Part shown: in pieces, positions 25,491 to 63,757 of the stretch | Position numbering within the stretch: the first letter of the stretch is position 1 | Layout: every line of letters begins with the position of its first letter | Source: a virus | DNA: 64,000 nt | Strand: one strand, 5' to 3' | IMG/VR virus record: IMGVR_UViG_3300020171_000003 | Location: 1-64,000 of that record | Position numbers and translations under genes: made by a program | The notes under the pieces: generated by a model | The model's input: only the letters and a program-made list of their open reading frames with translations | What the model was told of the DNA's origin: nothing | Database searches by the model: none

Positions 25491-25501
25491 TGAGTATCTT
25501 T

Positions 25502-27246: not shown

Positions 27247-27319
27247 ACTATACTTTAAAAAATAAACTTTTGTCAAGATAAAAAAAGTTCTTGACAAACC
27301 AATTTAGTTTTTGTAATAT
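27247..27319. promoter_or_regulatory. Back-to-back sigma70-type promoters
   Basis: Minus strand: TTGACA(27276-27271)-18 bp-TATAGT; plus strand: TTGACA(27291)-17 bp-TAATAT. Confidence 0.6.
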
Positions 27320-27400
27320 GTAATCACATTTTGTTTCTTTTTATTTATTTGTTCCATTCATCCTAAGAGGGTCTGTGTCAAAGCAGGCCCTCTCCTCTTT

Positions 27401-35536: not shown

Positions 35537-37959
35537 TAATTACCTTTTAATTCTTTTCTGTATAGTTCTTCTGCCATGTGTGTAAAATTTCTTGAACCAA
35601 TATCTAATCGTCTTAACAATCTTTTTTGTGCATCAATCACCGTGAAAGGACCTAAAGCATACGGTAATCCTGAACATCTTGCAAACAAATAAACAATCTC
35701 ACCAAATATAATATCTTCCCATTTACATTTGTAAACAGTTTGTTTACCACTTGCTGTTTTTAATTGTAAAGGTAACTTTATTTTATTGGCTCTTTTTCTA
35801 AACAGTTCCATATTGTTCTCCCTCCACATTCCGGACAAAGTGGACATTCCGGACAAGTATTAAATTTACCAAATGACCAACAGTCTTTATAATGGTTAGT
35901 TTTAATCAGTTTTATATAACCACACTCTTTACATTTATACTTTTTTTCTTTTGATGGATATGTTGCTGTTATTGTCATTTCTCCTCTCCTTTTTTAGATT
36001 TCTCTGAAATATTTGATAATATCTTGCCATTTGCCTTGAAGTAACGGTTTTTCAAACTCATTTTCTTTTCCCCAAATATAAGCTAATCCTTTTAATGAAG
36101 TATGACCAGAAGCCGGCGTTATTGTGTAAATTACTTCTCTTGTTTTTAGATCACAAATTCTAAAATCATCATACAGACTACCGTTCATCGGACAATTGTT
36201 CTTGAAAAATACATAGGTTTTATCTATGTCAAATTTATAAGTTGGAATAATCTGTAATAGTTTATTATAGAGCTTTTCGGTTTTTCCTGCTAAGTGTGTA
36301 TCTTTACAGAACCAATCATACCATCCAGCATCACATTGAGTACCTGTATCTTTAGCATAGTATTTACCAGATAAAAACTCTTTAATCATTTCCCTTGTTG
36401 TTTTCTGATTATTCATAATTTTTATCTCCTTTAAGTAAAATATTTTTTCCAATATTTCTTTGCTGTTTCTATTTCTTTATCCGTTAGTCTTGGAGATACC
36501 ATACAAAGGGCTTCTCCCATTAACATATCTTCATCTTCCTTGGAAAACTCCTTTTCACCACTGCTCATCATTTCTGCTCCTTCTTCTCCCCATATTTGCT
36601 GTGCATATTCATAACAAATATCACCATAAAAATTCAGAGCAGAAAGGACAATCTTTTCACTATTATCTTTCATTTTTTTCCCTCCTCCATTGACTTTTAA
36701 TTGATCGAGTATAGTTTTCCAAAATTTCTACACTTTGACCTTTATCTACTTTCTTAAATTTATTACCATCAAAGTAAAGAGCCTCTTTTGTATCATAGTT
36801 CTTCCACACATATTCTAATGTGAGCATCTTATCCCGGAGTATTTTATTCTTGTCTGCATGACCAAATAGATAAGGAACTTGTCCTACTGGATACCATTCT
36901 GCTTCATAAAAACAGATTATTGTAGTACCAGTAGGGCGTGTGAAGTGAAGAAAAGGACGATCAGGATTATCTGCAATGGCAAGATAATCCCATTTATTTA
37001 AATCCTGATGATAATGGGTTATGTGCTTCATGCTTCTTGAATGTAAATCCTGATATACTCTTGATAGTTTGGTTTGCATAATCTTTCTCCTTTGTTTAAA
37101 GTTCATTCATTTTTAAATCTGAATTGACAGTACAATATACCTCTTATATATGTCAACAGTTATTTTCATGCCCAACAAAAATACTTTTTAAATTTCTGAA
37201 TCCAAAATTTCTACATGAAATTTCTACATCCGAATGACTATCCGTTTGACTTTTGTTTTTGCATCTATTATATAATGAAGTAACAGATCATAAAACATAA
37301 TTTTAAACGAAAGGATATGCAAATGGACGAACGGTTTATACAGCAAGAGTCAAAGAGCATCATTTCTATTTTAGGAGATGAAATTTCATACGAGAAGGCT
37401 CTTGACGAAACAACGGTTTCTATAGTTGGTTTTCAAATTCTTTTAGGTCAAGTATATTCAAAAAAAGTAAAAGAAATTGAAATGGTAGGAGGAACAACAA
37501 AAGAAAAGGTTAAAACACTCCTATTTAAATTAAATGATAAAATTATTGCTAAAATGGAAATAAAAATAAATATTGATTTAAAAACAAAGGTAGTTACCCG
37601 AAAACTTGATTACTTTTTAACAGAGGAAACAAATGAAGCAACAAAGGATCTTATATCTACTTTAGGAAAAGGAAAGATTAAATAAGGAAACAGAGAATAC
37701 TTTGTTTAAGGAATATTGATTTGTTTTAGATTCAGGATTTGTTGTCTGTTTCATGCAGATGGTAGCAGAGATAGATATTTGAATAGGTATTTAGTTCAAC
37801 ACCACCGGAGGTATTTCACTTTCCCATATGAAAAAAGTTCTTTGTAACCTTCTATCGTACCTTCCTACAGGAGTTTCCTTCGATTGTGTTTGACCGTCCT
37901 GATGAAATAGAAAAACAGATAGATTATTCCTAACCTATCTGTTTTCCTTTTCCTTTTAT

Positions 37960-39548: not shown

Positions 39549-40187
39549 ATGAAAATGGAATTAGAAAACAATTATTGGGTGGACAGTAATAACAATAGCT
39601 GGAATAAAAGTTTATACTCAAAAGAAGAGGCAGAGAAATATAGCAATACTTTACGGAATTGTCGGTATTGTCAGGGTTGTCAGGATTGTCAGGATTGTCA
39701 GGATTGTCAGAATTGTCAGGGTTGTCAGGATTGTCGGAATTGTCGGTATTGTCTGGATTGTCAGAATTGTCAGGGTTGTCAGGATTGTCTGGATTGTCAG
39801 AATTGTCAGGGTTGTCAGGATTGTCGGAATTGTCAGGATTGTCGGAATTGTCTGGATTGTCAGAATTGTCAGGATTGTCAGGATTGTCAGGATTGTCAGA
39901 ATTGTCAGGGTTGTCAGGATTGTCGGTATTGTCAGGGTTGTCAGGATTGTCAGAACTTTAAAACAAATCCCCAAAGGATCTTTTCAGAAAAACAAGGCTC
40001 CCGAAAAGATCAAACAGAAATTTATTGGGACGATTTACACACACAAGTTAATTGCGGATGTTTTCATGGAAACTTAGCGGAATTTGAAAACAGAGTTATT
40101 GAGGTTCATGGGGATAATAAATTTGGAATAGAGTATTTAGCATGGATTAAACGAGTAAAACTATATATTGGAATTAAAAATTTCTGA
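39549..40187 (+). CDS. Cys-x-x tripeptide repeat protein with C-terminal GCFxG domain
   Basis: ~33 copies of a 9-bp unit (TGTCAGGAT and variants) encoding CQD/CQN/CQG. Confidence 0.8.
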   Translation: MKMELENNYWVDSNNNSWNKSLYSKEEAEKYSNTLRNCRYCQGCQDCQDCQDCQNCQGCQDCRNCRYCLDCQNCQGCQDCLDCQNCQGCQDCRNCQDCRNCLDCQNCQDCQDCQDCQNCQGCQDCRYCQGCQDCQNFKTNPQRIFSEKQGSRKDQTEIYWDDLHTQVNCGCFHGNLAEFENRVIEVHGDNKFGIEYLAWIKRVKLYIGIKNF

Positions 40188-40874
40188 ATTGAAAATTTCT
40201 ACATGGAATTTCTACAAAGAAGGGAGGTGATAAGTAAACAGATACAAAAGGAATAAAAACTTAAAATAAGATCAATCATAAACTGAAAATAAAGAAGGGA
40301 TAATAAACATGAAAAGGACAGAAATAGAATATGTGAAGAAAAATGACGGTAAGATCTATGTAGTAGGTTTTAAGAATGTTGCCACAAGGAAGGATTTGTT
40401 TTTAGAAGTTGGTTTAGCAATATATAATGAGTATATAAATTCAGGTGAGTATTATTTTTTAAGTGGCTCGGATAAAGATCAAATAATAGTAAGACATCCT
40501 CATTCCTGTTATCTGTATTTTATTTATAAGGATTGTTCTTATGAACCAAAGGAATTTTATAATAGAATACAATGGATAAAGAATGCAGGTGAGAATCTAA
40601 AGAAGATAAAGGATAACATTGCTAATAGAAAGGTTCAGACAATCATTATCTAAACCAAGCAATAAACAGAGAAAAGAACAAGGAATTAAATAATAACCAA
40701 AATTAATTCCTTTTCTTTTTCATATTTTAAACCATTTATTAGAATTCCATAACCTGGTTAAGAAAATTAATATAGGAATATTACAAAAACACCGGAGGTA
40801 TTTCACTTTCCCATATGACCAAAACTACTTCCTGATCCTCATTATCGAATAGTATTTAAACATTGAATAAGCTT

Positions 40875-50233: not shown

Positions 50234-50902
50234 ATGAGTCGAGGAGATGCTCCGCATGTTTATCATAATGACCAGGTAGATTACCAGGCATTATTTTTCA
50301 GTAACCCTGAAGCTTGTCTTGAAATTCCTATGACAATGCAAAGAGGTTATGGTCTTATTAAAGTAGGGACAGTTGTTGGTGTTAACACCAGTGCCAGTAG
50401 CACAAATAAAGGAAAGTACATTCCGTATGATCCTCATGCTACTATTACTGGAGCAGAAGACGCTCCGGGCAGAGCTTATATAGTGTCTAATCATACATCC
50501 GGTGCTTATACTGTTATTGTTACTATGGAGGACAGTTATAAGTTTATTGTTGGTGATGATCTGTTGCTACAAGGTTCTGGAGAGGCTGTTGAGAATGTGG
50601 GTGCAATTACCACTATTGATAGAACAACTTACGGTCATATTGCAACTATTACTTTCACAGTTGCTTCTGGTAAGAATTACACTACGGCAAATTTTGCTTA
50701 TGCATGTGTAGAAGGTTCTGAAACTGCTGTAGGTGTTTTAAAAGCGGCAAGAGATACTGGAGTAGGTACTGATTCAGTCGGTGCTCTGGGCAATCTGGTT
50801 ATTGGTAATGCTCTGTTTTATACTGGAGTATTGCTCAATATGGATTCTAATGCAAGAACGGATGTTAGTGCGTCCTTAATTAGTCAATACACTAAAATTT
50901 AA
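50234..50902 (+). CDS. Head decoration protein with inserted domain
   Basis: GTVVG....GKYIPYD...AVGVL (lambda D-like); precedes the capsid gene. Confidence 0.7.
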   Translation: MSRGDAPHVYHNDQVDYQALFFSNPEACLEIPMTMQRGYGLIKVGTVVGVNTSASSTNKGKYIPYDPHATITGAEDAPGRAYIVSNHTSGAYTVIVTMEDSYKFIVGDDLLLQGSGEAVENVGAITTIDRTTYGHIATITFTVASGKNYTTANFAYACVEGSETAVGVLKAARDTGVGTDSVGALGNLVIGNALFYTGVLLNMDSNARTDVSASLISQYTKI

Positions 50903-50920
50903 GAAGGGAGGTGATTTAGT

Positions 50921-52162
50921 ATGCCTAGAGGTGCAAGTGATATACCTGATCTAAGATTGTCGAGGATTAATAAACTTATCCAAAAGTTTATGACACCCCC
51001 TTCAATGCTTTTTTCTAATTTGTTTGGTACGGATAATGCTGATTCTGATACGATTAAATGGGAAAGTCAAATAGGAAATAGAGGTGTTACTCCTATGAAG
51101 GCTCCTGGTTCTCCTTCACAAGTTACCGCTCCGGTTGGTGTTTCTCAGAATGAAGCGGTTGCTGCTTTTTGGGGAGAAAAAGAGTATCATGACGAGGAAT
51201 TTTTGAATAACCTTAGAGAGGAAGGAACTGCTTCTACTTATCTTTCCGCCAAAAGACGTATTGCAAGAGAGTTTAGAAGTATGCGTAATAGGTGTGATAG
51301 GCGTCTTGAACTTTTGTTTGCTCAGATGCTTATTAATGGTGAAATTACTTATAGCGATAAAGGCGGGGTAAAACTATCTATTGATTATGCAATTCCTTCT
51401 GAAAATCAAGTTACTTTGGGTGCTAATTACTATTGGACAAACGGGACTCAACGGAATATTGTTGGGGATATTATGGATGCTAAAATCGTAGTGTCTGACT
51501 CTTGTACTGGTATTATTGATCACATGGTGATTAATAGCAATACGCTTAAAGTGATGGCAATGGATTCTTCTATTCAGACTTTGCTTTCTAAATCTAATTT
51601 TGGGAACGGTGATCTTTTCGGAAAATCAGCCGGAGGTATTATTGGAGTTCGTCCTAGGGTTCTTGGCGAATTGCTTGGTATTCCTAATATTGTTGTTTAT
51701 GATGAGAAGTATGTTATTGAGCAGACTTTGACAGCCGCGGTTGCTGCGGGTGGGACAACGGTTTATGTTGGTAATGCCGCTGATTTTACCACTGGTACTG
51801 CTGTTCTTCATGATATTTCTGCTGGTACTTCTGAATCAGTTACAGTTTCAGCGGTTAGTACAGAAGCAGGTACTCTTACTATTGGAGCAACCACTGCTGC
51901 GTTTAGGGCTGGAGAAGATAAGATTACGCAAACCCTACCGTTTATGCCTAATAACAAAACTCTGTTGATGGCTTCTACAGTAGAAGGTTCTAAGATTGCG
52001 GAATTTATTCAAGCTCCCTACGGGTTAAATAGAGCATATGGTCTTTTTGCTGATACAAAAGAAAACTGGGATCCTGATGGAATCTGGCTGCGTGTGCAGA
52101 ATAAAGGTCTTCCCGTCTTGTATCATCGGGATGCTATTTATTCATTAACATTTGCAGCCTAA
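50921..52162 (+). CDS. Major capsid protein (lambda E-like)
   Basis: RRLELLFAQML..G.I, IDYAIP, DPDG.W.....GLPV. Confidence 0.85.
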   Translation: MPRGASDIPDLRLSRINKLIQKFMTPPSMLFSNLFGTDNADSDTIKWESQIGNRGVTPMKAPGSPSQVTAPVGVSQNEAVAAFWGEKEYHDEEFLNNLREEGTASTYLSAKRRIAREFRSMRNRCDRRLELLFAQMLINGEITYSDKGGVKLSIDYAIPSENQVTLGANYYWTNGTQRNIVGDIMDAKIVVSDSCTGIIDHMVINSNTLKVMAMDSSIQTLLSKSNFGNGDLFGKSAGGIIGVRPRVLGELLGIPNIVVYDEKYVIEQTLTAAVAAGGTTVYVGNAADFTTGTAVLHDISAGTSESVTVSAVSTEAGTLTIGATTAAFRAGEDKITQTLPFMPNNKTLLMASTVEGSKIAEFIQAPYGLNRAYGLFADTKENWDPDGIWLRVQNKGLPVLYHRDAIYSLTFAA

Positions 52163-52177
52163 AAAGGAGGTGGATAG

Positions 52178-52651
52178 ATGAATAGACCAAATCCTTCAGT
52201 GGCTTTTGTGGAAGATGTTTCTTTATACAATGAACCTCCCTTGATGGCTGTTGTCTCAGGGGAGCTTCTTGTATCGAGAATGAATCATGTTTTAGGAACC
52301 GCACATTTTCCTGGTAGGGTTAGAAATATTTGGTTGTCTGTTGGTAATTGTGGAACAGACAAAACAGATGCTTTGAATATAAGCGGGGAAGTTTATATTA
52401 ATGGATCAAGTTGTTTGACAACTACTCCAAAAATTGCAGGTGTATCAGGAGAAGCAGGAGCACAAAAAACTACTAAAGTTATCGGTGATACTGCTATTGT
52501 CCAAGCGGTTGTGAACGCTTCTGCTAATTCATACAATGCAGGTGATATTTTTACTTGTAATTTCAAAATTCAGAGAACTACTCCGGAAGACGAAATTGAA
52601 TCAATTGTTCTTGTGGTTGATCTTTTTCCGAACACACCGGTATCAGTTTAA
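52178..52651 (+). CDS. Probable virion/head accessory protein
   Basis: Beta-rich, strong RBS, follows the capsid gene. Confidence 0.5.
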   Translation: MNRPNPSVAFVEDVSLYNEPPLMAVVSGELLVSRMNHVLGTAHFPGRVRNIWLSVGNCGTDKTDALNISGEVYINGSSCLTTTPKIAGVSGEAGAQKTTKVIGDTAIVQAVVNASANSYNAGDIFTCNFKIQRTTPEDEIESIVLVVDLFPNTPVSV

Positions 52652-53136
52652 AAGGAGGGCAATCGTGATTATCGAAAAGCTTAAATTACATGGAACACTT
52701 AAATGCGGGGATACTGTTTTTCATCCAGGTGAATACAGTATCCCTAATATTCCTAAAGAGCTTGTTTTAGAAGCCCGGATGGGAGCAAAAATTATAACGA
52801 TTCTTGCTCCCATTATAGGGACAATTGATTTTACAAAACAAGCAGAAGAACGAAAGAAAGAAGCGGATGATTTTAGTGCCTCTTGGAAAGCTATGGAACC
52901 AGATGCTTTTAAATCTTTTGTTTCTCAAGTAGAAAATAGAACAATTTTAGTAGCGCATGGACAGTATGATAAAGTCCTTGCAAAATGGTTTAGATACTTT
53001 CCTACTGATCCTTTTCCTGGAACAGAAAAGAAAGAAGAACCGTCTGCACCTGCCGCAGAAAGTGAGAAGGCAGGAAAAGCGAAAACAAAAATTGAGAAAA
53101 AACCTAAATCTAGATTAGTAAAGAGAAAGGTATAAA

Positions 53137-53586
53137 ATGGATGATTCTGCATTAAAAGTACTTTTATATTCAGAAATGAAAGGTTTATCGGATAGATTTA
53201 TTGATTCTGATTATGATAATGCTATTGATGATGCAGAGCGTGAAACTTGGAGTTTGCCTGTAACCACTAATTTTAGAATTTTTTGGTTAAAACGTCGAGC
53301 GAAACGCCATTTACTTTCATATCTTCAAAATGAGTATATTGATAAGATACAGCACGGGGAAACTAAATTTCAACAAAGATTTGACCATCTTGTTGCTGTT
53401 TTAAAAAGTGAGGATGATGCGTTTACCGCTGTTCAAGATGAAAGACCTGATGAGTTTGCTAATGTATCAGCTACTCATTTATTTGGTACATATATAAAAA
53501 CAGGTTTTCAATATGATTCTGTGGGAAACGATTTGACTTATGAAGAAAGCAACGAACCGGAGTTTTCTCCTTCTGATGAGGACTAA
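53137..53586 (+). CDS. Probable head-tail adaptor
   Basis: Helical 149 aa; position. Confidence 0.45.
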   Translation: MDDSALKVLLYSEMKGLSDRFIDSDYDNAIDDAERETWSLPVTTNFRIFWLKRRAKRHLLSYLQNEYIDKIQHGETKFQQRFDHLVAVLKSEDDAFTAVQDERPDEFANVSATHLFGTYIKTGFQYDSVGNDLTYEESNEPEFSPSDED

Positions 53587-53590
53587 TTAA

Positions 53591-54208
53591 TTGTCCATTG
53601 CTTTAGACATAAAAGGTATTTTAAATGAGACCGGATACTCTTTGTCTATTATTAGAGATAAAGAAATCTCCGGAGAAAAGGGTGAATTTAAATCCAATTC
53701 TCAGATTACAAAACCTTTTGTAAGACAGCATTTTTTAGAAGGTGTTTTACCTTATGATACAAAGATTATTCCTGGTGATGTTGTTAAAACAGTAGTAAAT
53801 TCTGAATTTTTTCTTGCAATGAATGTTACGGATGTAGTTTTAGAAAATACCTGTATAAAGAAAGAAACTGTTTTTTATAGATGCAATGTGAGCGGTGAAG
53901 TTTTGCGAGTTAGCGGGGAAGAAAGAAACTTGCAGACATACGCTTTACAGCCCATATATCAATCAATAAGCAATTTATGTTATGCTGTGATTGCAGATAC
54001 AGACGCAGGTACAGATATTTTGCAAGAAGAAAGAATTGGACAGATAGAAACGAATAAATTGTTTTTATTTATTCCGCATTCTGTAGGAATACGTCCTTTA
54101 GATATTTATATTCCTTATTCAGGAGAGTATTATAAAGTTGAGTCTGTTGAAAAGTTTCGTTTTCCGGCTGTAGATTATTGTATTTTATCTGAAAATACCA
54201 TAGACTAA
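53591..54208 (+). CDS. Probable head-closure protein
   Basis: Beta-rich; IRPLD.....YYKVESV; position. Confidence 0.5.
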   Translation: MSIALDIKGILNETGYSLSIIRDKEISGEKGEFKSNSQITKPFVRQHFLEGVLPYDTKIIPGDVVKTVVNSEFFLAMNVTDVVLENTCIKKETVFYRCNVSGEVLRVSGEERNLQTYALQPIYQSISNLCYAVIADTDAGTDILQEERIGQIETNKLFLFIPHSVGIRPLDIYIPYSGEYYKVESVEKFRFPAVDYCILSENTID

Positions 54209-54233
54209 ACTATTTAATCAACTGAGGTTGAAA

Positions 54234-56294
54234 ATGAAAAAAAAGATATTATTTGTAGGTGAAGCACCTTACGCATTTACTGGTAATTCTAATATGATGA
54301 ATGCTTTACTTTCATCTGTTGATACTGATAAATACGAGGTGTGTTGTTTTGGTTCAGGTGAGTCTCAAATAAAAGGAGATTCTATATTTCATTCTATGCC
54401 TTTTACTATTATCCCTTCTTTCAAACACGGTGATTTTTGGGGTAATGTCCATTTGTTAGAAGTTATTAATTCAAGTTCTTTTGATGTATTATTTATGGTA
54501 GGAATAGATTTGTGGAGATATGCTTCTATTTTTCCTGAAATAGTGAAATTAAGACAAGTTAAAAAATTTAAATGGGTATTTCTTTTTCCTTACGATTTTG
54601 AAAATTACAGACGAGAATGGGCAGGTTGGATTAATGCAATAGATATTCCGTTAGTTTATTCCCAGTATGGAGAAGATCTTTTAAAAGAATATCATCCTAA
54701 TATTACTTACTTTAGACCACCTTTGTTTGGCTCAGAGATTTTTACTTCTTTCCCTGTTGAGCAAAAGAAGATGGAAAAAAGTAAAATATTTTCTCAAGTA
54801 GCAAACAAGTTTATTTTTGGTTTTATTGGTCAGAATCAATTACGAAAAGATCCTTTAAGAGTTTTAGAAGCTTTCTCTTTGTTCCATAAAAAGAATCCAA
54901 ATACTGCTTTATATCTTCATACAGAAAATCAAGGTCCAAAAGGGGTTTATAATATAAATCAAGCTGTGTTTGATCTTGATTTTCCTCCACATACAATTTT
55001 ACTTAAAAAAGAAGGTCAAATTTACAGTCAATTGGATATGATCCGAATTTATAATGCAATTGATTGTTTAGTGAATGCTTCTTTTCAAGAAGGTTTATCT
55101 TGGACAGTTTTAGAAGCAATGTTATCAGGATGTCCTGTTATTGCTTCGGATACAACCGCTCATCCTGAGTTATTATGGGATGCAGGCATTCTTGTTAAAA
55201 GAACGGATCGAGTTCTTTTACCAATAGGAGGTATTACTGAAGGTGTTGTTTATGCTTCTACTCATGCGTGTAATACTGAAAAATTAGCGGAAGCAATGGC
55301 TACTATGTATTTAAATGATGAATATAGATTAGAATGTTCTGAACAAGGTTTACTTAGAGGAAAAGAATGGTTAGCAAGTGTTTCTAATGTGAATGATGTT
55401 TTAGATGTTGTTTCTATAGAGAAACCGGTTCAAAGAGTAGAAAGAATAAAAGGTGTTTTATTTGGTCAAAAAGCAAGTGCTGGTGACATTCTAATGACTA
55501 CACAATGTTTGAAAGGACTGAAAGAACTTCATCCGGATTTGCCTTTAAATTACATGACTTCTCAAAAATATATGAATATTTTAGAAGGGAATCCGTATAT
55601 TGAAAATATTTATTCTTGGGATGATTCTTTGCCTGCTCGTTTTGATTTTTATTACAATCCACATGAGCAACGTATTTTACCAGGACATTGGGGTAGAAAC
55701 TCAAATTCCCTATTGTCGGACTTTTATTGGAAAATTTTAAAAGTAGAACCTGGTTCGTTTTTTATTTATCCTCAAGAAATTCCTTCTGAATTTTCAGTTA
55801 AAATTCTTTCAGTAGATAGACCCATTGCTGTTGTTTATTCCGCAGGAGCAGATAGACCTTTTAGAGAATACCAATATTTTGGAATAGTATGCAATGAGAT
55901 TAAAGATAGATATGTTACAATTCAATTAGGAGGACATGATGATTATCCTGCAGGAGCAGAAATTGATCTAAGAGGACAACTAACTTATAGACAAGAAGCT
56001 TGGGTAGTCCAGAGAGCTTCACTTGGTTTAACTGTGGATACTTTTGGAGCACATTTAGTAGGTGCTTTAGGTGTTTCTCAAGTTACTTTACCAGGTTCAA
56101 GTAATAGCAGGGTAGTTCAACCAAAACAAACAGCAGGTGATCTTATTATATTAGATCCTGATTATGTAAAAGTGTGTCCTGGTTTAGGGCCTTGTTCTGC
56201 AAGTGTTAGAGATTGTCCTTTGCCTTGTATTGGTTCTATTTCTCCTAAAAAAATTATAGAGTCAATTGATTTTATAGAAAGGAAGGGTTTATGA
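54234..56294 (+). CDS. Two-domain glycosyltransferase (GT4-like + GT9-like)
   Basis: N: GQNQLRKD, EGLSWTVLEAM..CPVIASD; C: GDILMTT, VDTFGAHLVGALG. Confidence 0.85.
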   Translation: MKKKILFVGEAPYAFTGNSNMMNALLSSVDTDKYEVCCFGSGESQIKGDSIFHSMPFTIIPSFKHGDFWGNVHLLEVINSSSFDVLFMVGIDLWRYASIFPEIVKLRQVKKFKWVFLFPYDFENYRREWAGWINAIDIPLVYSQYGEDLLKEYHPNITYFRPPLFGSEIFTSFPVEQKKMEKSKIFSQVANKFIFGFIGQNQLRKDPLRVLEAFSLFHKKNPNTALYLHTENQGPKGVYNINQAVFDLDFPPHTILLKKEGQIYSQLDMIRIYNAIDCLVNASFQEGLSWTVLEAMLSGCPVIASDTTAHPELLWDAGILVKRTDRVLLPIGGITEGVVYASTHACNTEKLAEAMATMYLNDEYRLECSEQGLLRGKEWLASVSNVNDVLDVVSIEKPVQRVERIKGVLFGQKASAGDILMTTQCLKGLKELHPDLPLNYMTSQKYMNILEGNPYIENIYSWDDSLPARFDFYYNPHEQRILPGHWGRNSNSLLSDFYWKILKVEPGSFFIYPQEIPSEFSVKILSVDRPIAVVYSAGADRPFREYQYFGIVCNEIKDRYVTIQLGGHDDYPAGAEIDLRGQLTYRQEAWVVQRASLGLTVDTFGAHLVGALGVSQVTLPGSSNSRVVQPKQTAGDLIILDPDYVKVCPGLGPCSASVRDCPLPCIGSISPKKIIESIDFIERKGL

Positions 56295-56986
56295 GACCTT
56301 TAGTAATTGCTTCAAATATGTTAATGGAAGCGAACAATGATTTAGAAGGTTGGATTGAGAATATGCAACAAGTTACTGATTTGGGCATTCTTGTTGTGGA
56401 CGGCGGTTCTACTGACGGAACAAAAGAGATTTTAGAGGCTGCTGGAGTTATTGTTATTACAGATAATATAATTCAAAGAGAAGGATACGGACCTGCAAGA
56501 AATCAATTAAGAAAACTTTGTAAAGAGAACTTTCCAGAAGCTCATTGGATGGCTTATTTTGATGCTGATGAAAGAATCAATGAAAAAGACATTCATTTTT
56601 TGAAATGGGTTCAAAACTATTTAAATGAAAGCGTTTCTGATGTTGTTGCTTTTCCAAGAATTGATTGGTTTGATAAAGAGAAAACTAAATCAAATAATGA
56701 TATACGGATAGTTCCGGATTTTCAAGCAAGAATGACAAGATTAAATGCTCCTTTGGAATATATAAGAATTTGTCATGAACAGATTGTAACAACTAAAGGC
56801 ATTTTTTGTAATATAGATGTTTGTCCGCCTATTCATCATTTTCATAGGTCAGCAAGTAAAGATAAGCGTGATTACATTGGTAAGGTCTGTGCTATGCTTC
56901 ATTCTAAAGATCCATATGGACATACTTATCCGAAACACCATAAAGAAGATTATTATTTTGATTTGTATCAGAAAGAAGGTTTATGA
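56291..56986 (+). CDS. GT2-family glycosyltransferase
   Basis: VVDGGSTDGT, ARN, FDADE, HE. Confidence 0.85.
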   Translation: MRPLVIASNMLMEANNDLEGWIENMQQVTDLGILVVDGGSTDGTKEILEAAGVIVITDNIIQREGYGPARNQLRKLCKENFPEAHWMAYFDADERINEKDIHFLKWVQNYLNESVSDVVAFPRIDWFDKEKTKSNNDIRIVPDFQARMTRLNAPLEYIRICHEQIVTTKGIFCNIDVCPPIHHFHRSASKDKRDYIGKVCAMLHSKDPYGHTYPKHHKEDYYFDLYQKEGL

Positions 56987-57615
56987 AGGAAGAAATTTTT
57001 ATTTTTGGAAATTCTATGTGCTGTACTCCTTCTAAGGAATCTTATCTTGATTTACTGAAACAAGATTATGATGTTAACGGTATGTGGATGAGAGGAATGA
57101 CAATTTGGCATGTTAATAAATATCTAAGAAATATTGTTAGAGGAGATAATTCTTGGATAATTATTAATGTAGGAATAGTTGAGGCTGTTACTAGAAAATC
57201 CTATCATGTTTTATACTATTGGTTAAATGAATTACTTTCACATGATGCTGATGAACTGTTTAAAGAAACTATTTTACCATACTTGCAAAATATTTCTTTA
57301 AGTATGGATAAAGAAGATGTTTCTTTTTGGAATATAATTCCATCCGGTTGTTTTTTACGGTTGTTTGAACTTTGTTTAAAAAAATTAGAAAGTTATAGAA
57401 TCATTGTGGTAGGACCTGCTTATCCAAAACCTTTAGAAAATACTTCAAGATTTTCTATTTGTATTAATTATGCTTCTATTCTAAAAAATTTAGAAAAAAT
57501 TTATTTTATTGATACTTGGAACAAGTGTAAAGAGGATTCTATTGATGATGCTCATTTGAATGCAAATGGACATAAAAAGATTTACAATCTCATAAAGGAG
57601 AAAATTAATGGATAA
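56983..57615 (+). CDS. SGNH/GDSL-like hydrolase or acyltransferase
   Basis: IFGNS...INVG...DDAHLNANGH. Confidence 0.65.
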   Translation: MKEEIFIFGNSMCCTPSKESYLDLLKQDYDVNGMWMRGMTIWHVNKYLRNIVRGDNSWIIINVGIVEAVTRKSYHVLYYWLNELLSHDADELFKETILPYLQNISLSMDKEDVSFWNIIPSGCFLRLFELCLKKLESYRIIVVGPAYPKPLENTSRFSICINYASILKNLEKIYFIDTWNKCKEDSIDDAHLNANGHKKIYNLIKEKING

Positions 57616-58558
57616 AAGAAATGTGTTTACCTCTACAGGAATAAAATTATTACAACATCCGGAAGTCATACATTTTTTACAGAGAGGACGATTTATTCCT
57701 GTTTCATTACAAGTTGCCCCTACTTCAAGATGTAATTTGAATTGTTCCTTTTGTTCTAACAGCAAAAGGAGTAAACATGAAGATTTGGATAGAAATGAAT
57801 TGTTTTATTTTATTGATGTTTTACAAAGAACAGGACTTAAAACAGTAGAAATCACTGGTGGCGGTGATCCTACAATGTATCATAGCATTAATGAGTTGAT
57901 AGAGTGTATTTATGAATCTGATCTGGAAGTCGGATTAATTTCAAATGGTATTTTACTTAAAGAGAAAATTAGTCCTAGAAATTTAAATTCATTAACTTGG
58001 TTAAGAGTCTCTTTAAACTCGTTGGAGTATTGTGACGATATTGATTTACCTAAAATTAATGGTACACTGGGATTCAGTTTTGTAATTCATTCTAAAAATA
58101 TAAATAACATATTAAAATATGGTAAAAGAATAAGAAAATTGGTGGATAAGTACCATGCTTCTTATGTCCGCATTGTTCCGGATTGTTTACCTGGAGAAGA
58201 TGAAAAAAGATTGAATGTAATCTGTGAAGCTTTTGTTCGTGAATTTGGGGAACCGTTTTTCTTTCAAGAGAAGATTTTTAGGAAACCAGATAACTGTTGG
58301 TGGGGATATTTAAAACCGTTTCTTCTTCATGATAAGTTTGTTTATCCTTGTAGTTCTGTTGTTCTTAATTCAGGATCTGAAGGAGTATTTCATGAAAAAT
58401 TTAGAGTAGCTACTATGGATGATTTTCTTTTAAATTATAGACAAGGTTTTAAAGTAAATTCTTTTCCTACAGCTAATTGTGATAGGTGTGTTTTTGCAAA
58501 TCAGAATGATATGGTAGATTCAATTTTGAATCCTAATAAAATGAGGAATTTTTTATAA
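57608..58558 (+). CDS. Radical SAM enzyme with C-terminal Cys (SPASM/twitch-like) domain
   Basis: CNLNCSFC, ITGGGDP, SNG, C...VYPC...CDRC. Confidence 0.88.
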   Translation: MDKRNVFTSTGIKLLQHPEVIHFLQRGRFIPVSLQVAPTSRCNLNCSFCSNSKRSKHEDLDRNELFYFIDVLQRTGLKTVEITGGGDPTMYHSINELIECIYESDLEVGLISNGILLKEKISPRNLNSLTWLRVSLNSLEYCDDIDLPKINGTLGFSFVIHSKNINNILKYGKRIRKLVDKYHASYVRIVPDCLPGEDEKRLNVICEAFVREFGEPFFFQEKIFRKPDNCWWGYLKPFLLHDKFVYPCSSVVLNSGSEGVFHEKFRVATMDDFLLNYRQGFKVNSFPTANCDRCVFANQNDMVDSILNPNKMRNFL

Positions 58559-59088
58559 TGAGAAAATTACAAATAGGTCCAGGAAAAGCTTATTTCCCCG
58601 GATGGGACAATGTGGATATATTTTCAAATGTTCGGGCAGATCTTTATGCCTCTGCTCTTGCTTTACCTTACGAACCTGAAACTTTTGATTTGTTATATAG
58701 TTCACATGTCCTTGAGCATATAAATAGAAACATGACAGTAGCAGCATTGAGTCATTGGCATTCGTTGTTACGCAAAGGAGGGGTGCTTCGTTTAGCGGTT
58801 CCCAGTTTCTCTGCTGTTGTTGAGTACTATAATAAAGAAAAAGATTTGGTTCCTTTACTTGGTCTTCTATTTGGAGGACAAAGGTTTATTTTAGATTCTC
58901 ATTGTTGTGTCTTTGATGAAATGTTTTTAACCAAGTTATTAAAACAAGTAGGATTTACTGAAATAAGAAAATGGGATTGGAGAAAGACGGAACATGCTCA
59001 ATTTGATGATTATTCCCAAGCGTATCTTCCCCATATGGATAAAGAAGAAGGTCTTCTAATGTCTTTGAATATGGAGGCCGTAAAATGA
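58558..59088 (+). CDS. Class I SAM methyltransferase
   Basis: LQIGPG...VDI...SHVLEH...L.KGG.LRLAVP. Confidence 0.85.
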   Translation: MRKLQIGPGKAYFPGWDNVDIFSNVRADLYASALALPYEPETFDLLYSSHVLEHINRNMTVAALSHWHSLLRKGGVLRLAVPSFSAVVEYYNKEKDLVPLLGLLFGGQRFILDSHCCVFDEMFLTKLLKQVGFTEIRKWDWRKTEHAQFDDYSQAYLPHMDKEEGLLMSLNMEAVK

Positions 59089-60362
59089 AAAATATTTATA
59101 TTTATGATCCAGAACCTTTTCTTCATGATTATGTTTCTCATAAATTTTTAACTCCTTTATTGAAGTATGGTACTACTAAAGGAATGACTATTAAAAAGAT
59201 AAACTCTTTTGATGAAGCGAAAAACGGAATAGTTTTATCTTTCAGTGGACATTTAAAATCAGATGTTATTAAGAAATTAAAAGAGGATAATAACTTTATT
59301 GGTTCTTTTGATATTACAGATAGCACATGGTTAAGTGAAGCTTATAGATGGGATCATGAAGCTTGTTCTTCTTTAGATGCTATTTTTAAATTTAGCGGAA
59401 TTCCAAAGTATCAATATTCACAAGAACTCCAGATAGGTGAAGATTTAACTTATTATAAACATGATTATCCTTACATGGAAGATAAAGAATGGCAGTATTT
59501 TTGTAACTTGAAAGAAAACAATAAAATTATACCTATGCCTCATATTCCGTGGCAGCAATATAATATTGTTCCTATTCACTATTTAAAGAAAAGAGACGTT
59601 CTTGTAAGGGGAGGAAATCATTATTTACGTTTTCATTTGTTTCTTAATTTTTTAAAATTTGGATTAACAAGTAAATGGTCCGGTTTCTTTATGGCTGATT
59701 ATCATAAATCTAAAATGGATGCAGATCATAGATTTTGTGATAATTGTTGTGAAATATGGAACAGAAATAATAATAGATTTCCTTATGAAGAATACTTAAA
59801 TATTCCTATTTATGAGAAATGTAATAATGGTCATATTCCTTGGCCTATTACGGATGAAACCACTTTTCAGAATAAGAACAATCATAGATGGAATAATAAA
59901 TGTATTCCTATTTATTATTGGTTAACAGAAACTTTTGTTAATAAACACGGATATGTGGACATGAAGAAAGTAGAGGATTGTTTCTCTATTTTTTATCTTC
60001 ATCCGGATGATTTAGGGAATGTTTTAGCTCACCATTTATTTACAGCAGATTATAAATGGATTTATAGCATTGATATTCCTCCAAGATTTTGGGAATGTAG
60101 TGCGGCGAAAACAGTAAGCTTAATGCCAAGATGGACAAGAAATCAAACTCATTTTCCAAATTTGATTGAGAATGAGCATTATATTACTTTTGATGAGGCT
60201 TTTGAAGACCTTGAATTAGTAATGGACACAAAACAAGAACAATATGACCATATAACAAATAATTGTTATAATTTATATCAAAAATGGATTAAAGGTGAAG
60301 AATACGGAATATCAATTAATTTGATGAATCATATATTTAATCAGATTGAAGAAAGGATATAA
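59085..60362 (+). CDS. Putative glycosyltransferase (GT-B-like C-terminus)
   Basis: PRFWEC...LIENEHYI...YDHITNN.Y; cluster context. Confidence 0.5.
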   Translation: MKNIYIYDPEPFLHDYVSHKFLTPLLKYGTTKGMTIKKINSFDEAKNGIVLSFSGHLKSDVIKKLKEDNNFIGSFDITDSTWLSEAYRWDHEACSSLDAIFKFSGIPKYQYSQELQIGEDLTYYKHDYPYMEDKEWQYFCNLKENNKIIPMPHIPWQQYNIVPIHYLKKRDVLVRGGNHYLRFHLFLNFLKFGLTSKWSGFFMADYHKSKMDADHRFCDNCCEIWNRNNNRFPYEEYLNIPIYEKCNNGHIPWPITDETTFQNKNNHRWNNKCIPIYYWLTETFVNKHGYVDMKKVEDCFSIFYLHPDDLGNVLAHHLFTADYKWIYSIDIPPRFWECSAAKTVSLMPRWTRNQTHFPNLIENEHYITFDEAFEDLELVMDTKQEQYDHITNNCYNLYQKWIKGEEYGISINLMNHIFNQIEERI

Positions 60363-60962
60363 ATGCATTACGATATTGATTACTTTGAAAACGGATTAGA
60401 AACAGGTAAAAGTTGCTATCAGAATTACCGTTGGTTACCTGAAGAAACTCTTTCCTTAGCTATGCGTTTCATTGATCATTTTAATTTAACTCCTGAGGAT
60501 ACTATCTTGGATTACGGATGTTCCAAAGGATATTTAGTGAAAGCTTTTCGTTTACTTCATAGAAAAGCTTTTGGTTATGATATAAGTCCTTATGCTTTAT
60601 CTTGTGCTCCTCCGGAAGTAAAAGATTTTTGTTTTGATTATCTACCAAGAAGACCTTTTAATTTTTGCATTGCTAAAGATGTTTTTGAACATATTTCTTT
60701 ACCAGATTTGCAAAGACTTTTAACAGGAAATTTAAATACAAATACTCTCTTTGCAATTATTCCTCTTGGTGATAATAAAATTTATAGATCTTCAATAAAT
60801 AATCTTGATCCCTCTCACATTGTCTGTTATAGTGAGGTAGAATGGATGAAATTTTTCGGAAAATGTGGTTGGATTGTGAAAGATTTTACTTTTAGTTTTC
60901 CAGGATTAAAAGAACATCATCCTGAAAGATCACACGGTTTTTTTACTTTGGTGGAAGTATGA
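60363..60962 (+). CDS. Class I SAM methyltransferase
   Basis: ILDYGCSKG...GYDIS...DVFEHI. Confidence 0.88.
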   Translation: MHYDIDYFENGLETGKSCYQNYRWLPEETLSLAMRFIDHFNLTPEDTILDYGCSKGYLVKAFRLLHRKAFGYDISPYALSCAPPEVKDFCFDYLPRRPFNFCIAKDVFEHISLPDLQRLLTGNLNTNTLFAIIPLGDNKIYRSSINNLDPSHIVCYSEVEWMKFFGKCGWIVKDFTFSFPGLKEHHPERSHGFFTLVEV

Positions 60963-61357
60963 ATGAATTTAAATTAGATTTATTTGTTCTTAATTCGGAA
61001 AGAAATCTTAACCAACCTTTTATTTGGGAAGATTTTTCAAAACACCATATATTAGGTGATGTATATTTAGTCAATAATAATTTACAGATAAATAGTACCA
61101 AGAAGTATAGTCCTTACTTCTTTTTGATTTATGATGATGAGATGATAGAAGAACAAGCGACCGTAGCTCTCCGTTCATTTGCTGATGCGGAGTATGATGT
61201 TGTAAAGCTATATAAGAAAGAGAAAGATGATAAAATAAGTATACAACCGAGATTTTTTAAATCAAGTATAGTTTTACCTGAATTTGGGTTATTACCAAAT
61301 AATTGGAAAGAATTAAATATGGAGACTTGTTTAAATGGCTTTCTCTTTACAGTTTGA
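60959..61357 (+). CDS. Short, degenerate GT2-like protein
   Basis: FFLIYDDE...QPRFFK echoes the GT2 DxDE...RLF segment. Confidence 0.4.
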   Translation: MNEFKLDLFVLNSERNLNQPFIWEDFSKHHILGDVYLVNNNLQINSTKKYSPYFFLIYDDEMIEEQATVALRSFADAEYDVVKLYKKEKDDKISIQPRFFKSSIVLPEFGLLPNNWKELNMETCLNGFLFTV

Positions 61358-61889
61358 GTTAAATCCGAATGATAAAAGGAAGTTTCTTACCGCTTGTGAT
61401 AGATTGATGGCTAATATACCACACGCAAGCAGAAAGATTAATCAGGATTCAGCTTATGCTTTGCAACAAAATTTGATTTCCAATATTTCAAGTCAAAAGT
61501 TTTCTTATCCGGCTCATAATGAGCGTTACTCAGAATGGAAACAACAATACGGTAAAGGTAAAGGTAAATCAGATTTCTGGAATTTATATGGTGATTTATT
61601 AAAAGCTATTCAAGTGAAAATAGTACAATGGAAAGATCAGTCTGAATTTTTTGTAGGGATTCCTCCTAAGATTCAAGATTCTGGAGGGAAATCTTGGTTT
61701 GGTGTAGGGGAAAAAGGAGCAACAAAAGAAATTTTAAGTTATGCACTTATTATGGAAAAAGGCGGTCAGAATGGGAAACAACCGCCCAGACCTTTATTCG
61801 AACCTACAGAAGGAGAATTTGGAGCTTCTGATAGAAGATCAAGAATTGCTAACCAAGGACTAATAAGGATTTTACAATCATGGAGATAA
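61335..61889 (+). CDS. Neck / tail-completion protein
   Basis: GDLLKAI, YALIMEKG...PPRPLFEP. Confidence 0.65.
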   Translation: MAFSLQFELNPNDKRKFLTACDRLMANIPHASRKINQDSAYALQQNLISNISSQKFSYPAHNERYSEWKQQYGKGKGKSDFWNLYGDLLKAIQVKIVQWKDQSEFFVGIPPKIQDSGGKSWFGVGEKGATKEILSYALIMEKGGQNGKQPPRPLFEPTEGEFGASDRRSRIANQGLIRILQSWR

Positions 61890-62443
61890 ATATTGAAGAA
61901 GCTGAAAAGTATTTAGATTTTATTGATGTAAAGTATTTTGAAGCAAAGAAGAATGGTATGTCCAGATTTGATGTAAAATGGGGTGTTTGGTCTGTTGTCA
62001 TGAATAGAGAACTCCGAAATAAAGAGAAAGAAAATCCTTTATTAGTTTCTGTTTTTATGTATTGGGTAGCAGCCTCTCAATTATTGCAGTTATGTTTTAA
62101 ACATAAGGTTTTAAAGAATTTAGCAAAAAAGAAATTGAGACAAGAGATGGAGAGTCTTAAAAATAGGATAAAAGAAGGTATTGCACCTGAGGAATCTATT
62201 CAAGAATTTGTTATTAAAGGAATTAAGAAATAATGGAACTTATTGATAAGAAAATAATAAAGATGGATTTTCTTATTGGATTATCTTCTGATGATATAGA
62301 AAATCTTTTCTATATTTTACAGAGGACAGAAGTACTTTTGGACGAAAAAGATCCTTTAAGTGTAAAAGCTCATCACTTTTTTGTCCATACATTTTTTAAA
62401 TTTATTTTAGATTTGAAAGAGGAGATTGATTCTAATGGCATTG

Positions 62444-62896
62444 GATCCGACCGCTCGTAAAGCAAATGTGAAGGATTCTATAAAGAAGTATTTTATAGAT
62501 ACAGTTCAAACCATAGAAGGTGTACCTGTTTCTTTTGATACTTCGGCAAGAACGCCTAAATTGACAGGGCAACCTAAAGAAGTCTTACAATGGGTCGGGA
62601 TTGATCTTGGTTCTTTTTCAATATCAGATTGGACAGAATTTTATATTATGATCTTTTGTTGTACGAGAAAAGATTATGAAGGTTTTAAATTAGCACAATT
62701 AAGAGATAAGGTGGTTGGATATTTAACAGCGAATAGTGGAAGTATTCCTTTTTATAGAAGCTATTCAGATCAAGCTTGGACATTACTTGGCGGTATGACA
62801 GTTTTAAATGTATTAGAATCAGAAGAAATGCAAGCTCCGGACGAAACCAAGTATGTAATGCTAACCTGTAGAATAGGATTTGTGAGCAAATTATGA
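62444..62896 (+). CDS. Probable tail terminator
   Basis: Size and position before the tail tube gene. Confidence 0.45.
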   Translation, partial: DPTARKANVKDSIKKYFIDTVQTIEGVPVSFDTSARTPKLTGQPKEVLQWVGIDLGSFSISDWTEFYIMIFCCTRKDYEGFKLAQLRDKVVGYLTANSGSIPFYRSYSDQAWTLLGGMTVLNVLESEEMQAPDETKYVMLTCRIGFVSKL

Positions 62897-63162
62897 GCAA
62901 TCAAAAAGTTTTTTTACAATGTGATGTGTGTGGTAAAAATATTATTGAAAGATTGCCAAACGGTCTTTTTAGATTTATGTTTGGAAAAAAAGGAGAGGAA
63001 GATTTTCCTCCTGTAGAAATTTTGATTCATGGAAATATTAAAATGAGATGTTTAAGGAGAAGTTGCAAAGAATGGAATGTTTTCAACTTTTTACCTTTTG
63101 CCGAAATCCAATCGGAAACGAAGTTCTCCGTAGATAATTCAAAAAGAAGGGAGGTGAAATAA
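62893..63162 (+). CDS. Zn-ribbon (Mu Com-like) small protein
   Basis: CDVCGK...IKMRC...CKEWN. Confidence 0.5.
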   Translation: MSNQKVFLQCDVCGKNIIERLPNGLFRFMFGKKGEEDFPPVEILIHGNIKMRCLRRSCKEWNVFNFLPFAEIQSETKFSVDNSKRREVK

Positions 63163-63163
63163 T

Positions 63164-63757
63164 ATGGCTATTACTGGACCTGTTACAAAAAATACAACCA
63201 CTCCTGTTATAGGATTGGCGCAAATTCGTTTAGGATCGTCTGGAACCAATATTGCAAGTGTTGCTCCTGTTTTGACTGCTAGCAATTCAATTGGTTCTGT
63301 GGCAAGTACTAAATTTGTATCTGCTATTGACTTTTTCAGATTGGAGTCTGGTTATCCTTTAATGGAGGATGCTGCTTATCCGATTCGTGAGAAAGCTTCA
63401 ATGGAAGTTGCTTTTAAAGAAATTACCCCGGCTAACATTGCTTATGCTCTTGGTTTAGATGGTGCTTCTGGAGAATATTCTGCGGCTCATTCTGGTGAAA
63501 TTTCTTTAGGAACTGTCAAAACTCCAGCTTTTATTCGTTTGGAGTCTGTTTATACTTATCCTGATGGAAGTAATAAAATGCAGATCATTTTCCCCAGGGC
63601 TCAGATTTTGTCTAATGTTGAGTTAGATCATAATGCAGAGGAGCCTTTGGCTACTCCTATGATGATTGAAGCAAAACGGGCAGATTCTAATGTTGATGGT
63701 GGGAATGCTGTTTGGGATAATAAACCTTATGGACGAATTTTTTGGTCCGTTTCATAA
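63164..63757 (+). CDS. Major tail tube protein
   Basis: 197 aa; EITPANIAYALG, IIFPRAQ; no sheath gene upstream. Confidence 0.7.
   Translation: MAITGPVTKNTTTPVIGLAQIRLGSSGTNIASVAPVLTASNSIGSVASTKFVSAIDFFRLESGYPLMEDAAYPIREKASMEVAFKEITPANIAYALGLDGASGEYSAAHSGEISLGTVKTPAFIRLESVYTYPDGSNKMQIIFPRAQILSNVELDHNAEEPLATPMMIEAKRADSNVDGGNAVWDNKPYGRIFWSVS

Follow-up and report, generated by a model that had tools for sequence, protein, structure and literature searches.

The IMG/VR virus record IMGVR_UViG_3300020171_000003 is 80,532 bp in full, with a G+C content of about 33%. Its first 64 kb (64,000 nucleotides [nt]), here called the window, contains a siphophage morphogenesis operon that starts 45.2 kb in and runs on the plus strand. 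An earlier note on this DNA had pointed to the tripeptide Ser-Gly-Glu (SGE) in four predicted virion proteins of the operon and had proposed it as the acceptor motif of a glycosyltransferase (GT) cluster encoded among them. We asked how far the counts, the relatives of this phage and the enzymes of the cluster bear out that proposal.

The head end of the operon encodes, in order, the large terminase, the portal, an S49 protease/scaffold protein (Pfam Peptidase_S49, PHROG 53), a decoration protein, the major capsid protein (MCP), the 157-amino-acid (aa) protein A157, a 156-aa protein, an adaptor and the stopper-like protein B205. After B205 come an eight-gene sugar block, Neck1-like and terminator-like genes and a putative tail tube gene; beyond the window, the same genome continues with a chaperone, the tape measure and distal tail genes. 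Open reading frames (ORFs) were called mechanically, and the class "virion protein" is partly positional, since family matches within that set were limited to the capsid, protease and decoration proteins. The features on which the argument turns are the following.

50234-50902, plus strand: head decoration-like protein, 222 aa; one SGE (GSGEA, nt 50576-50584)
50921-52162, plus strand: MCP, 413 aa (Pfam Phage_cap_E, 1.8e-28; PHROG 29); no SGE
52178-52651, plus strand: A157, 157 aa, directly after the capsid gene; SGE at nt 52256-52264, 52382-52390 and 52445-52453 (VSGEL, ISGEV, VSGEA)
53591-54208, plus strand: B205, 205-aa stopper/head-closure-like neck protein; SGE at nt 53669-53677, 53891-53899, 53912-53920 and 54119-54127 (ISGEK, VSGEV, VSGEE, YSGEY)
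54228-56294, plus strand: GT688, GT4+GT9 fusion glycosyltransferase, first gene of the sugar block; its own SGE at nt 54354-54362
56291-61357, plus strand: tailoring cassette, annotated with Pfam and NCBIfam; no SGE
63164-63757, plus strand: putative tail tube, 197 aa; SGE at nt 63467-63475 (ASGEY) and 63491-63499 (HSGEI)

SGE in the virion proteins

All ten copies were found at the sites and in the contexts given by the earlier note: one in the decoration-like protein, three in A157, four in B205 and two in the tail tube. Its statement that selection is at the protein level also holds. The serines use TCT, TCA, TCC and AGC in the window, and AGT as well outside it; they thus span both codon families, and the constraint therefore acts on the protein. 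With serine in TCN and AGY codons and with varying Gly and Glu codons, a DNA-level motif was ruled out.

The note had also stressed that ten copies in about 780 aa is far above expectation. The figure itself is right (781 aa, 0.28 expected from composition), but the four proteins had been selected after the fact, and we therefore ran stricter tests. Over all ORFs of the window, SGE occurs 13 times against 5.3 to 5.7 expected and ranks 62nd among tripeptides, which is unremarkable. In a pre-defined structural set of 16 proteins (3840 aa), it is the top tripeptide, with 10 copies against 1.44 expected; about 1% of within-protein shuffles yielded any equally extreme tripeptide. The tail genes outside the window, a check that the note had suggested, gave 11 copies against 1.97 expected (13 ORFs, 63778 to 80221, 5378 aa; Poisson p = 7e-6), a count reached in 0 of 20,000 shuffles. 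For the whole genome, the comparison of structural with nonstructural proteins that the note had likewise called for gave 21 copies against 3.13 in the virion proteins (8519 aa, p = 2.5e-11) and 3 against 4.15 in the rest (16,797 aa). The best of 300 shuffled sets, taken across all tripeptides, reached only 2.9e-6.

Two of the nonvirion copies, in 36431-36673 (minus strand) and 40309-40653 (plus strand), account for the "about two" that the note had seen outside structural genes; it had overlooked a third, the GSGES of the first glycosyltransferase.

The enrichment is specific to this tripeptide. Observed and expected counts were 1 and 2.6 for TGE, 2 and 3.0 for SGD, 4 and 2.9 for AGE, and 2 and 2.95 for SAE, so that none of these near-variants is enriched. 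A general preference for S-x-E, x-G-E or S-G-x was ruled out, every other variant being unremarkable. The residues at positions -1 and +1 are mostly hydrophobic.

The 11 copies outside the window are divided among a 289-aa protein (four), a 1469-aa protein (five) and a 114-aa protein (two). The 1469-aa distal tail protein (71934-76343, plus strand) contains three 25-aa repeats at residues ~975-1040, each with G-x-x-L-x-x-S-G-E, and three of its five SGE copies are spaced 25 aa apart in this way; when they are counted once, the total is 9. The GDDLLLQGSGE of the decoration protein resembles this repeat, which may point to a longer preferred context for the motif. Together with VSGEVLR/VSGEERN in the stopper, these are the local repeats, and internal duplication as the whole cause of the enrichment was rejected as only partly true, since most copies lie in unrelated contexts.

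The carriers differ in fold. The AlphaFold2 model of A157 (predicted local distance difference test [pLDDT] score, 86) is a C1q/TNF-like jelly roll that resembles the BC2L-C N-terminal lectin (BC2L-C-Nt), C1q, EDA and the heads of phage C1q-type collagen-like fibres, and A157, encoded directly after the capsid gene, is probably a trimeric head decoration. In the model of B205 (pLDDT 87), the N-terminal half resembles SPP1 gp16, the Douge connector and the T1 stopper. The tail tube is so labeled from gene order alone (it precedes the chaperone and tape-measure genes), and a PDB profile search with it gave no match. None of A157, B205 and the tail tube had a sequence family in Pfam, PHROGs or NCBIfam. 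The decoration-like protein matched Pfam HDPD (lambda gpD) weakly, at an E value of 4e-6 that is under the curated cut-off, and PHROG 49 (head decoration).

DSSP assignments on the A157 and B205 models placed two of seven sites in loops, four within the first or last few residues of a strand and one toward the end of a long strand. Where SGE lies in a strand, its Ser and Glu side chains would be on the same side. Across the 32 homologs of A157 compared, S27-G28-E29 never varies and S90-G-E hardly does; the third site is shared with L005 only. The tail tube motifs lie at residues 102 and 110 of 197; the first is not common to L001, which has SGE at another position. Four relatives without GT688 (L014, L066, L074 and L082) have an insertion of ~100 aa, probably an extra Ig-like or decoration domain, exactly at the tail tube loop that bears SGE in phages with GT688. 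We take this as a hint that the tail displays the loop on its surface.

A family of ~110-aa proteins with two SGE each is encoded at different genome positions in three phages with GT688 (79598-79942, plus strand, in the same genome; G001:60757-61089; G006:34905-35231, minus strand). Its members have a similar C-terminal ..SGE..(I/F)..E(I/L) ending and, from these sequences, may be small dedicated glycan-carrying decoration proteins.

GT688 and its relatives

Residues 187-338 of GT688 matched Pfam Glycos_transf_1 and Glyco_trans_1_4 with 41.8 and 46.2 bits (cut-offs, 26.4 and 27). Across 16 homologs, E288 of an EX7E-type motif (E288..E296) is invariant, and the consensus keeps E296 (QEGLSWTxLEAM). 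The C-terminal half matched NCBIfam heptosyltransferase III (2e-10) and RfaQ (4e-5), with the curated equivalog cut-offs all missed widely. A profile of residues 400-688 built from 16 homologs found WaaF (1psw, 1.5e-7), 3tov (1.9e-7) and WaaC (3.3e-7), with both lobes covered. PF01075 (GT9) is precomputed for most full-length GT688 homologs, and the window's own protein fell short of the Pfam threshold for it. On these sequence matches, GT688 belongs to both GT4 and GT9. Both families are of the GT-B type, and their nucleotide-sugar chemistry takes place in the cytoplasm, which is also the site of phage assembly; known members of both include cytoplasmic enzymes with direct serine-glycosylating activity.

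GT688 ends with four cysteines, C650, C656, C663 and C667 (C-x5-C-x6-C-x3-C; window 56175-56228). They are 88 to 94% conserved in one alignment of 17 homologs; in another alignment, three are invariant and one is nearly so. They may form a metal finger, reminiscent of the TibC-type iron finger but placed differently. More than 160 full-length GT4+GT9 homologs were found in public metagenomes, on contigs of up to ~92 kb, none of them characterized.

The cassette behind GT688 in the window consists of seven genes on the plus strand.

56291-56986: GT2 glycosyltransferase
56983-57615: unknown
57608-58558: radical SAM enzyme
58558-59088: methyltransferase
59085-60362: unknown, 425 aa
60363-60962: methyltransferase
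60959-61357: unknown, 132 aa

Among relatives, GT688 always heads the cassette and is its sole constant gene; the genes behind it vary in number from 3 to 10. The link that the earlier note drew between SGE and the GT cluster therefore needs narrowing: the motif co-varies with the first gene, GT688, and the other genes of the cluster are not the same from one relative to another.

We compared 81 loci retrieved by the capsid protein and 80 retrieved by GT688; in all, the capsid family extends to at least 133 contigs and GT688 to at least 135 loci. In GT688-positive loci, GT688 and a variable cassette come after B205, whereas in GT688-negative loci neck and tail genes come directly after it; negative status is secure only for the complete genome G005 and for loci with neck genes directly after B205, several contigs being incomplete. 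The E-type MCP served as the phylogenetic marker. Since a search of an annotated phage collection with the capsid protein gave no match, there was no annotated relative to compare. One GT688-negative relative sits in a contig of a Desulfobacterales metagenome-assembled genome.

SGE was kept at the four B205 sites in 42, 61, 63 and 69 of 72 distinct GT688-positive sequences and in 1, 0, 0 and 0 of 19 GT688-negative ones. At least two SGE were present in 70 of the 72, and none in 18 of the 19. The flanks of the sites (CN.., ..R, RP.., ..EYYK) are conserved in both classes; this is therefore the same scaffold with and without the motif. The tail tube HSGEI was present in all 13 GT688-positive sequences. 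GT688-negative tail tubes have HSGS, HSGT, HSGQ, HAGE or DTSI instead, several of them one substitution away and never SGE. Enrichment was thus not equal in homologs from phages lacking the GT block, a comparison that the earlier note had named as a possible refutation and that its proposal survived: the same conserved sites in stopper and tail tube are without SGE. The A157 gene itself was present in 75 of 86 GT688-positive loci and in 0 of 20 GT688-negative loci.

We then ranked SGE among all tripeptides in complete or near-complete contigs, ten of which were used, counting all ORFs without selection of regions and dropping low-complexity proteins. The ranks were as follows.

GT688-positive genomes: 1, 1, 1, 4, 12, 26
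GT688-negative genomes: 217, 301, 2695

Among the ranked GT688-negative genomes is one whose record is 100% complete and has terminal repeats. In G005 (the record behind L071), 13 SGE in one tail protein were set aside as a by-product of a collagen-like (GTS)n repeat; this tail fibre (50449-51792, minus strand), with (G-T-S)n and G-E/D-D triplets, is a trap for naive counts. Pooled counts, for which seven GT688-positive genomes were used and in which the GT688-positive counts are not independent because many sites are homologous, were as follows.

GT688-positive, virion proteins: 91 observed, 15.3 expected, ratio 6.0
GT688-positive, cassette enzymes: 2 observed, 6.2 expected, ratio 0.32
GT688-positive, other proteins: 14 observed, 18.05 expected, ratio 0.78
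GT688-negative, virion proteins: 17 observed, 8.6 expected, ratio 2.0
GT688-negative, other proteins: 12 observed, 10.6 expected, ratio 1.13

The capsid tree shows three changes in GT688 status, each accompanied by a change in whether B205 has two or more SGE. The lineages concerned are a large GT688-negative clade, L027/L047 beside the GT688-positive L017, and L014 among GT688-positive phages. In L014, which is GT688-negative and nested among GT688-positive phages, the sites look decayed (ISGE, QGR, SQA, SGA). A B205 tree built without the motif columns gave at least four status changes with moderate support. Motif turnover between relatives was seen at the second tail tube site, the third A157 site and a fifth B205 site, and some relatives carry SGE in the capsid and tape measure proteins.

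The association extends to a phage with a different structural module, G006 (the record behind L122), so that the co-occurrence of SGE enrichment with GT clusters that the note had anticipated was found there as well. The structural module of G006 contains no match to the capsid family studied here and is hardly BLAST-similar to the present genome, yet it holds 13 SGE against 3.38 expected (p = 5e-5), with 1 against 2.26 in the rest of the contig. GT688 lies there inside a large sugar block on the strand opposite to the structural module. This block (10947-29952, plus strand) spans ~19 kb and ~25 sugar-related genes headed by GT688, among them a second radical SAM enzyme and a 604-aa methyltransferase fusion. 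It adjoins replication genes, outside the morphogenesis operon, and the cassette is therefore mobile within this phage group. G007 was rejected as a second independent replicate, because its contig holds only replication and sugar genes (1 SGE against 3.65, the expected lack of enrichment).

In L115, whose cassette is the closest to that of the window, the slot after the capsid gene (8030-8587, plus strand) encodes a 186-aa protein unrelated to A157 that has four SGE. HHalign found only an N-terminal GPxPS motif in common, with a probability of 1.5%, and the protein was rejected as a divergent A157. The shared GPxPS may be a common capsid-anchoring arm.

The remaining genes of the operon in the window are without SGE.

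52665-53135, plus strand: 156-aa protein
53137-53586, plus strand: probable head-tail adaptor, 149 aa, assigned from position and conservation; no SGE in any relative
61335-63162, plus strand: neck/tail-completion genes, assigned from PHROG 26 (61335-61889) and synteny with relatives; Neck1-like, 61335-61889; tail-terminator-like, 62426-62896; small Zn-ribbon-like, 62893-63162; and others

The probable start of the 156-aa protein is GTG 52665, which lies 7 nt behind a AAAGGAGG ribosome-binding site; the longest ORF listed begins at ATG 52536 and would overlap the preceding gene by 116 nt. The weak PHROG match of its product, to a family of tail assembly chaperones, is unexpected for a gene between head and neck genes. 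The adaptor had no family match in Pfam or PHROGs. Elsewhere in the window, a 212-aa protein (39549-40187, plus strand) has a central region of ~100 residues that is a near-pure tandem repeat of C-Q-[D/G/N], with some C-R-N, C-L-D and C-R-Y units and ~34 Cys, one every third residue; because of this repeat, CQD, QDC and DCQ are the most over-represented tripeptides of the window.

Interpretation of the motif

The enrichment, its restriction to virion proteins, its tripeptide specificity, the conservation of sites, the domain architecture of GT688 and the co-variation of SGE with that gene were all computed here. As judged from sequence, SGE is a short linear motif, usually with hydrophobic flanks, that is under strong selection in particle proteins of widespread environmental siphophages. 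It is confined to the virion, occurs across unrelated folds, stands at fixed sites and tracks one enzyme gene. Because an enzyme recognition motif explains all four properties, we consider it probable that a serine O-glycosylation dependent on GT688 uses SGE as its acceptor or recognition motif and that the variable cassette tailors the glycan. To a stricter version, in which SGE is a strict O-glycosylation sequon read by the GT4+GT9 fusion on folded virion proteins, with a glycan particular to each phage through its cassette, we would give an even chance. Such a sequon-directed virion system would then be the first in phages, would be widespread in environmental siphophages, to judge from the more than 160 enzyme homologs, and could provide a minimal tag for glyco-engineering in the cytoplasm.

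In the mechanism that we envisage, cytoplasmic two-domain GT688 would be made late in infection from the operon that also encodes the neck and tail proteins. It would find SGE at strand ends and in loops of folded or folding virion proteins and transfer a sugar from a nucleotide sugar onto the serine hydroxyl. One of its domains would probably start the glycan and the other extend it, and the GT2, radical SAM, methyltransferase and unknown proteins would then elaborate it differently in each phage. The expected bearers would be the C1q-like head protein and the neck, tail tube and distal tail proteins. We infer the glycosylation, the serine acceptor, the domain roles and the sugar, as well as the benefit, which might be shielding, stability or adsorption. 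The "glycan coat" of the earlier note was an overstatement: the MCP lacks SGE, the site in the decoration protein lacks conservation, with 0 copies in nearly every relative, and the tape measure and the 682- and 702-aa tail proteins have none.

Several results weigh against glycosylation at SGE by GT688. The absence of the motif from the MCP, the tape measure and the 682- and 702-aa tail proteins of this genome is one, and the first stopper site, which is SGE in just 42 of 72 GT688-positive sequences, is another. The phages compared are metagenomic virus records without an isolate, known from sequence alone. Independent gains or losses number only three to four, and a sign test is nonsignificant (p = 0.25 to 0.5) because only two to three independent pairs are usable. 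This scarcity of independent pairs is the chief statistical weakness of the association.

The same scarcity favors a different explanation, that SGE is a lineage-specific structural motif, a strand edge or turn with Ser and Glu on one face, linked to the cassette by ancestry or proximity. The stopper gene adjoins GT688, and exchange of the two as one module could link the cassette with its neighbor. L115 has GT688 together with a B205 of the GT688-negative type that contains no SGE. Several sites lie inside predicted beta-strands (by DSSP only), at strand starts or ends, as a structural motif would. In view of the twofold excess in GT688-negative virion proteins, moreover, some of the signal may come from a structural baseline or be a remnant. 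A structural turn, however, would accept Thr or Asp, and neither TGE nor SGD is enriched; and GT688-negative tail tube homologs retain HSG- and alter only the Glu. The excess also recurs across different folds without detectable homology (C1q-like, stopper, tail tube, distal tail, the G006 module and the 186-aa protein of L115), in carriers many kilobases from the cassette and, in G006, with the cassette unlinked to the structural genes. In three GT688-positive genomes, SGE is the top tripeptide genome-wide. It therefore seems unlikely to us that a structural motif is the explanation.

A second alternative is that SGE is read by another factor and that the GT cassette acts elsewhere, for instance on phage DNA or on the envelope of the host. 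SGE could serve for docking of the C1q-like protein, for a different modification (S-x-E is similar to the site of an acidophilic kinase) or as a signal in assembly, and we rate these candidates, even jointly, as quite unlikely. The protein substrate of GT688 is itself an inference, GT9 enzymes classically act on lipopolysaccharide, and phage GT-B enzymes glycosylate DNA (bioRxiv 10.1101/2023.12.21.572611). TibC was absent from the PDB matches of GT688 at E = 10 (profile) and E = 1 (single sequence), and GT688 had no detectable sequence match to any known protein glycosyltransferase, two further points against glycosylation at SGE by GT688. The C1q-like gene, for its part, strictly co-occurs with GT688 (75/86 versus 0/20 loci). 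Yet 11 GT688-positive loci without it (e.g., L051, L056 and L149) retain SGE in the stopper, and the C1q-like protein itself bears an invariant SGE. No kinase or other modifying enzyme co-varied with the motif in the loci examined. The DNA glycosyltransferases described to date are encoded alongside C5-methyltransferase and 5mYOX genes, neither of which this cassette contains, and a DNA or envelope target would leave a virion tripeptide that tracks GT688 unexplained. We thus find this alternative, too, improbable as a whole.

Chance clustering noticed post hoc, which the unremarkable window-only rank (13 versus 5.7 expected) and the choice of four proteins for containing the motif might suggest, is so improbable that we regard it as excluded, given the pre-specified unseen tail proteins, the shuffle controls (0/300 in the family-wise control), the genome ranks, the pooled counts and the repeated enrichment in six other genomes.

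If SGE is the acceptor of a GT688-dependent glycosylation, glycosylated virion proteins would be predictable from sequence in a large uncultured phage group, and the GT4+GT9 fusion would add a new type to the cytoplasmic protein O-glycosyltransferases. Glyco-engineering and the making of shielded therapeutic phages could then both profit from a three-residue tag that works on folded proteins. The system suits a clean experiment, with one enzyme and small soluble substrates of two to four sites each, and enzyme-less relatives supply natural S-to-T, E-to-S/T/Q and S-to-A variants. Even if the modification is a different one, a single tripeptide that tops whole phage proteomes and tracks one gene needs explaining.

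Comparison with known glycosylation systems

In the literature that we found, phage particle glycosylation has so far been shown in only a few actinobacteriophages, with no defined acceptor motif reported. In a full-text literature search, we found no account of a sequon in phages, of SGE as a motif or of a virion enzyme of the GT4+GT9 type, nor did we find a report of a short sequon in actinobacteriophage virion glycosylation. Phage virion glycosylation and cytoplasmic bacterial serine O-glycosylation are thus already known; what is new is the tripeptide, the enzyme architecture, the substrate set and the phage group.

The virions of the mycobacteriophages Che8, Corndog and Myrna are reported to be glycosylated, with the glycans at the C termini of capsid and tail tube subunits (PMC12619734, PMC12363180). 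As in our proposal, the phage itself encodes the glycosyltransferases, and their presumed targets are proteins of its own particles, the tail tube among them; such enzymes have to act in the cytoplasm, ahead of lysis. Glycosyltransferase genes in a tailed phage are common to both, here as GT4+GT9 and GT2 genes inside the morphogenesis operon. The analogy that the earlier note drew with actinobacteriophages holds to this extent and is otherwise loose: unlike the C-terminal glycans reported in PMC12619734, the sites here are internal, they share an exact tripeptide, and the MCP lacks it. Neck and distal tail proteins are also included here, the enzyme is a GT4+GT9 fusion, and the phages are low- to mid-GC environmental siphophages.

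TibC and AAH, of the BAHT family, are GT9-related GT-B enzymes that O-heptosylate many Ser but not Thr residues of a beta-rich protein in the cytoplasm; one mapped site is the Ser of ..NSGGA.. (PMC4358343). Like TibC/AAH, GT688 is encoded beside a candidate substrate, the stopper-like gene lying directly upstream in nearly all loci, and serine alone would be used in both, here to judge from the motif counts (TGE, 1 versus 2.6). The four-cysteine metal finger of BAHTs is, however, an insertion in the C-lobe, whereas the four conserved cysteines of GT688 are in a C-terminal tail. BAHTs, which assemble into dodecamers, have an N-terminal beta-barrel plus a beta-hairpin thumb, whereas the N-terminal 390 residues of GT688 are a GT4 domain; and the TibC/AAH substrate is one beta-helix, whereas the candidates here are virion proteins of several folds. 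We do not place GT688 in the BAHT family because of the lack of a TibC match, the GT4 domain in place of the beta-barrel and the different position of the cysteines. The relation is best described as a functional analogy, not as family membership.

GT4 includes cytoplasmic serine O-glycosyltransferases of Gram-positive adhesins (GtfA/GtfB, SdgA/SdgB). Enzymes of the GtfA/SdgA type put the first sugar on Ser near acidic residues of repetitive surface proteins, and other transferases extend it. GT688 matched SdgA marginally (E = 0.076). The GtfA/SdgA substrates are long, low-complexity Ser-rich or Ser-Asp repeats, whereas here the motif is isolated in folded domains, and we know of no GtfA/GtfB or SdgA/SdgB enzyme fused to a GT9 domain.

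The chlorovirus PBCV-1 has virus-encoded cytoplasmic glycosyltransferases, atypical N-sequons and methylated sugars on its capsid. Like PBCV-1, the phages studied here would encode their own glycosylation and tailoring genes, including methyltransferases, and would have noncanonical acceptor motifs on structural proteins. Unlike them, PBCV-1 is a eukaryotic giant virus with N-linked glycans on its major capsid protein, and neither its enzymes nor its motifs are related to those described here. The preprint bioRxiv 10.1101/2023.12.21.572611 refers to a capsid glycosyltransferase of PBCV-1. Set beside these systems, SGE behaves in its distribution as a sequon would, being over-represented in the candidate substrate class only and co-varying with the enzyme over three to four transitions.

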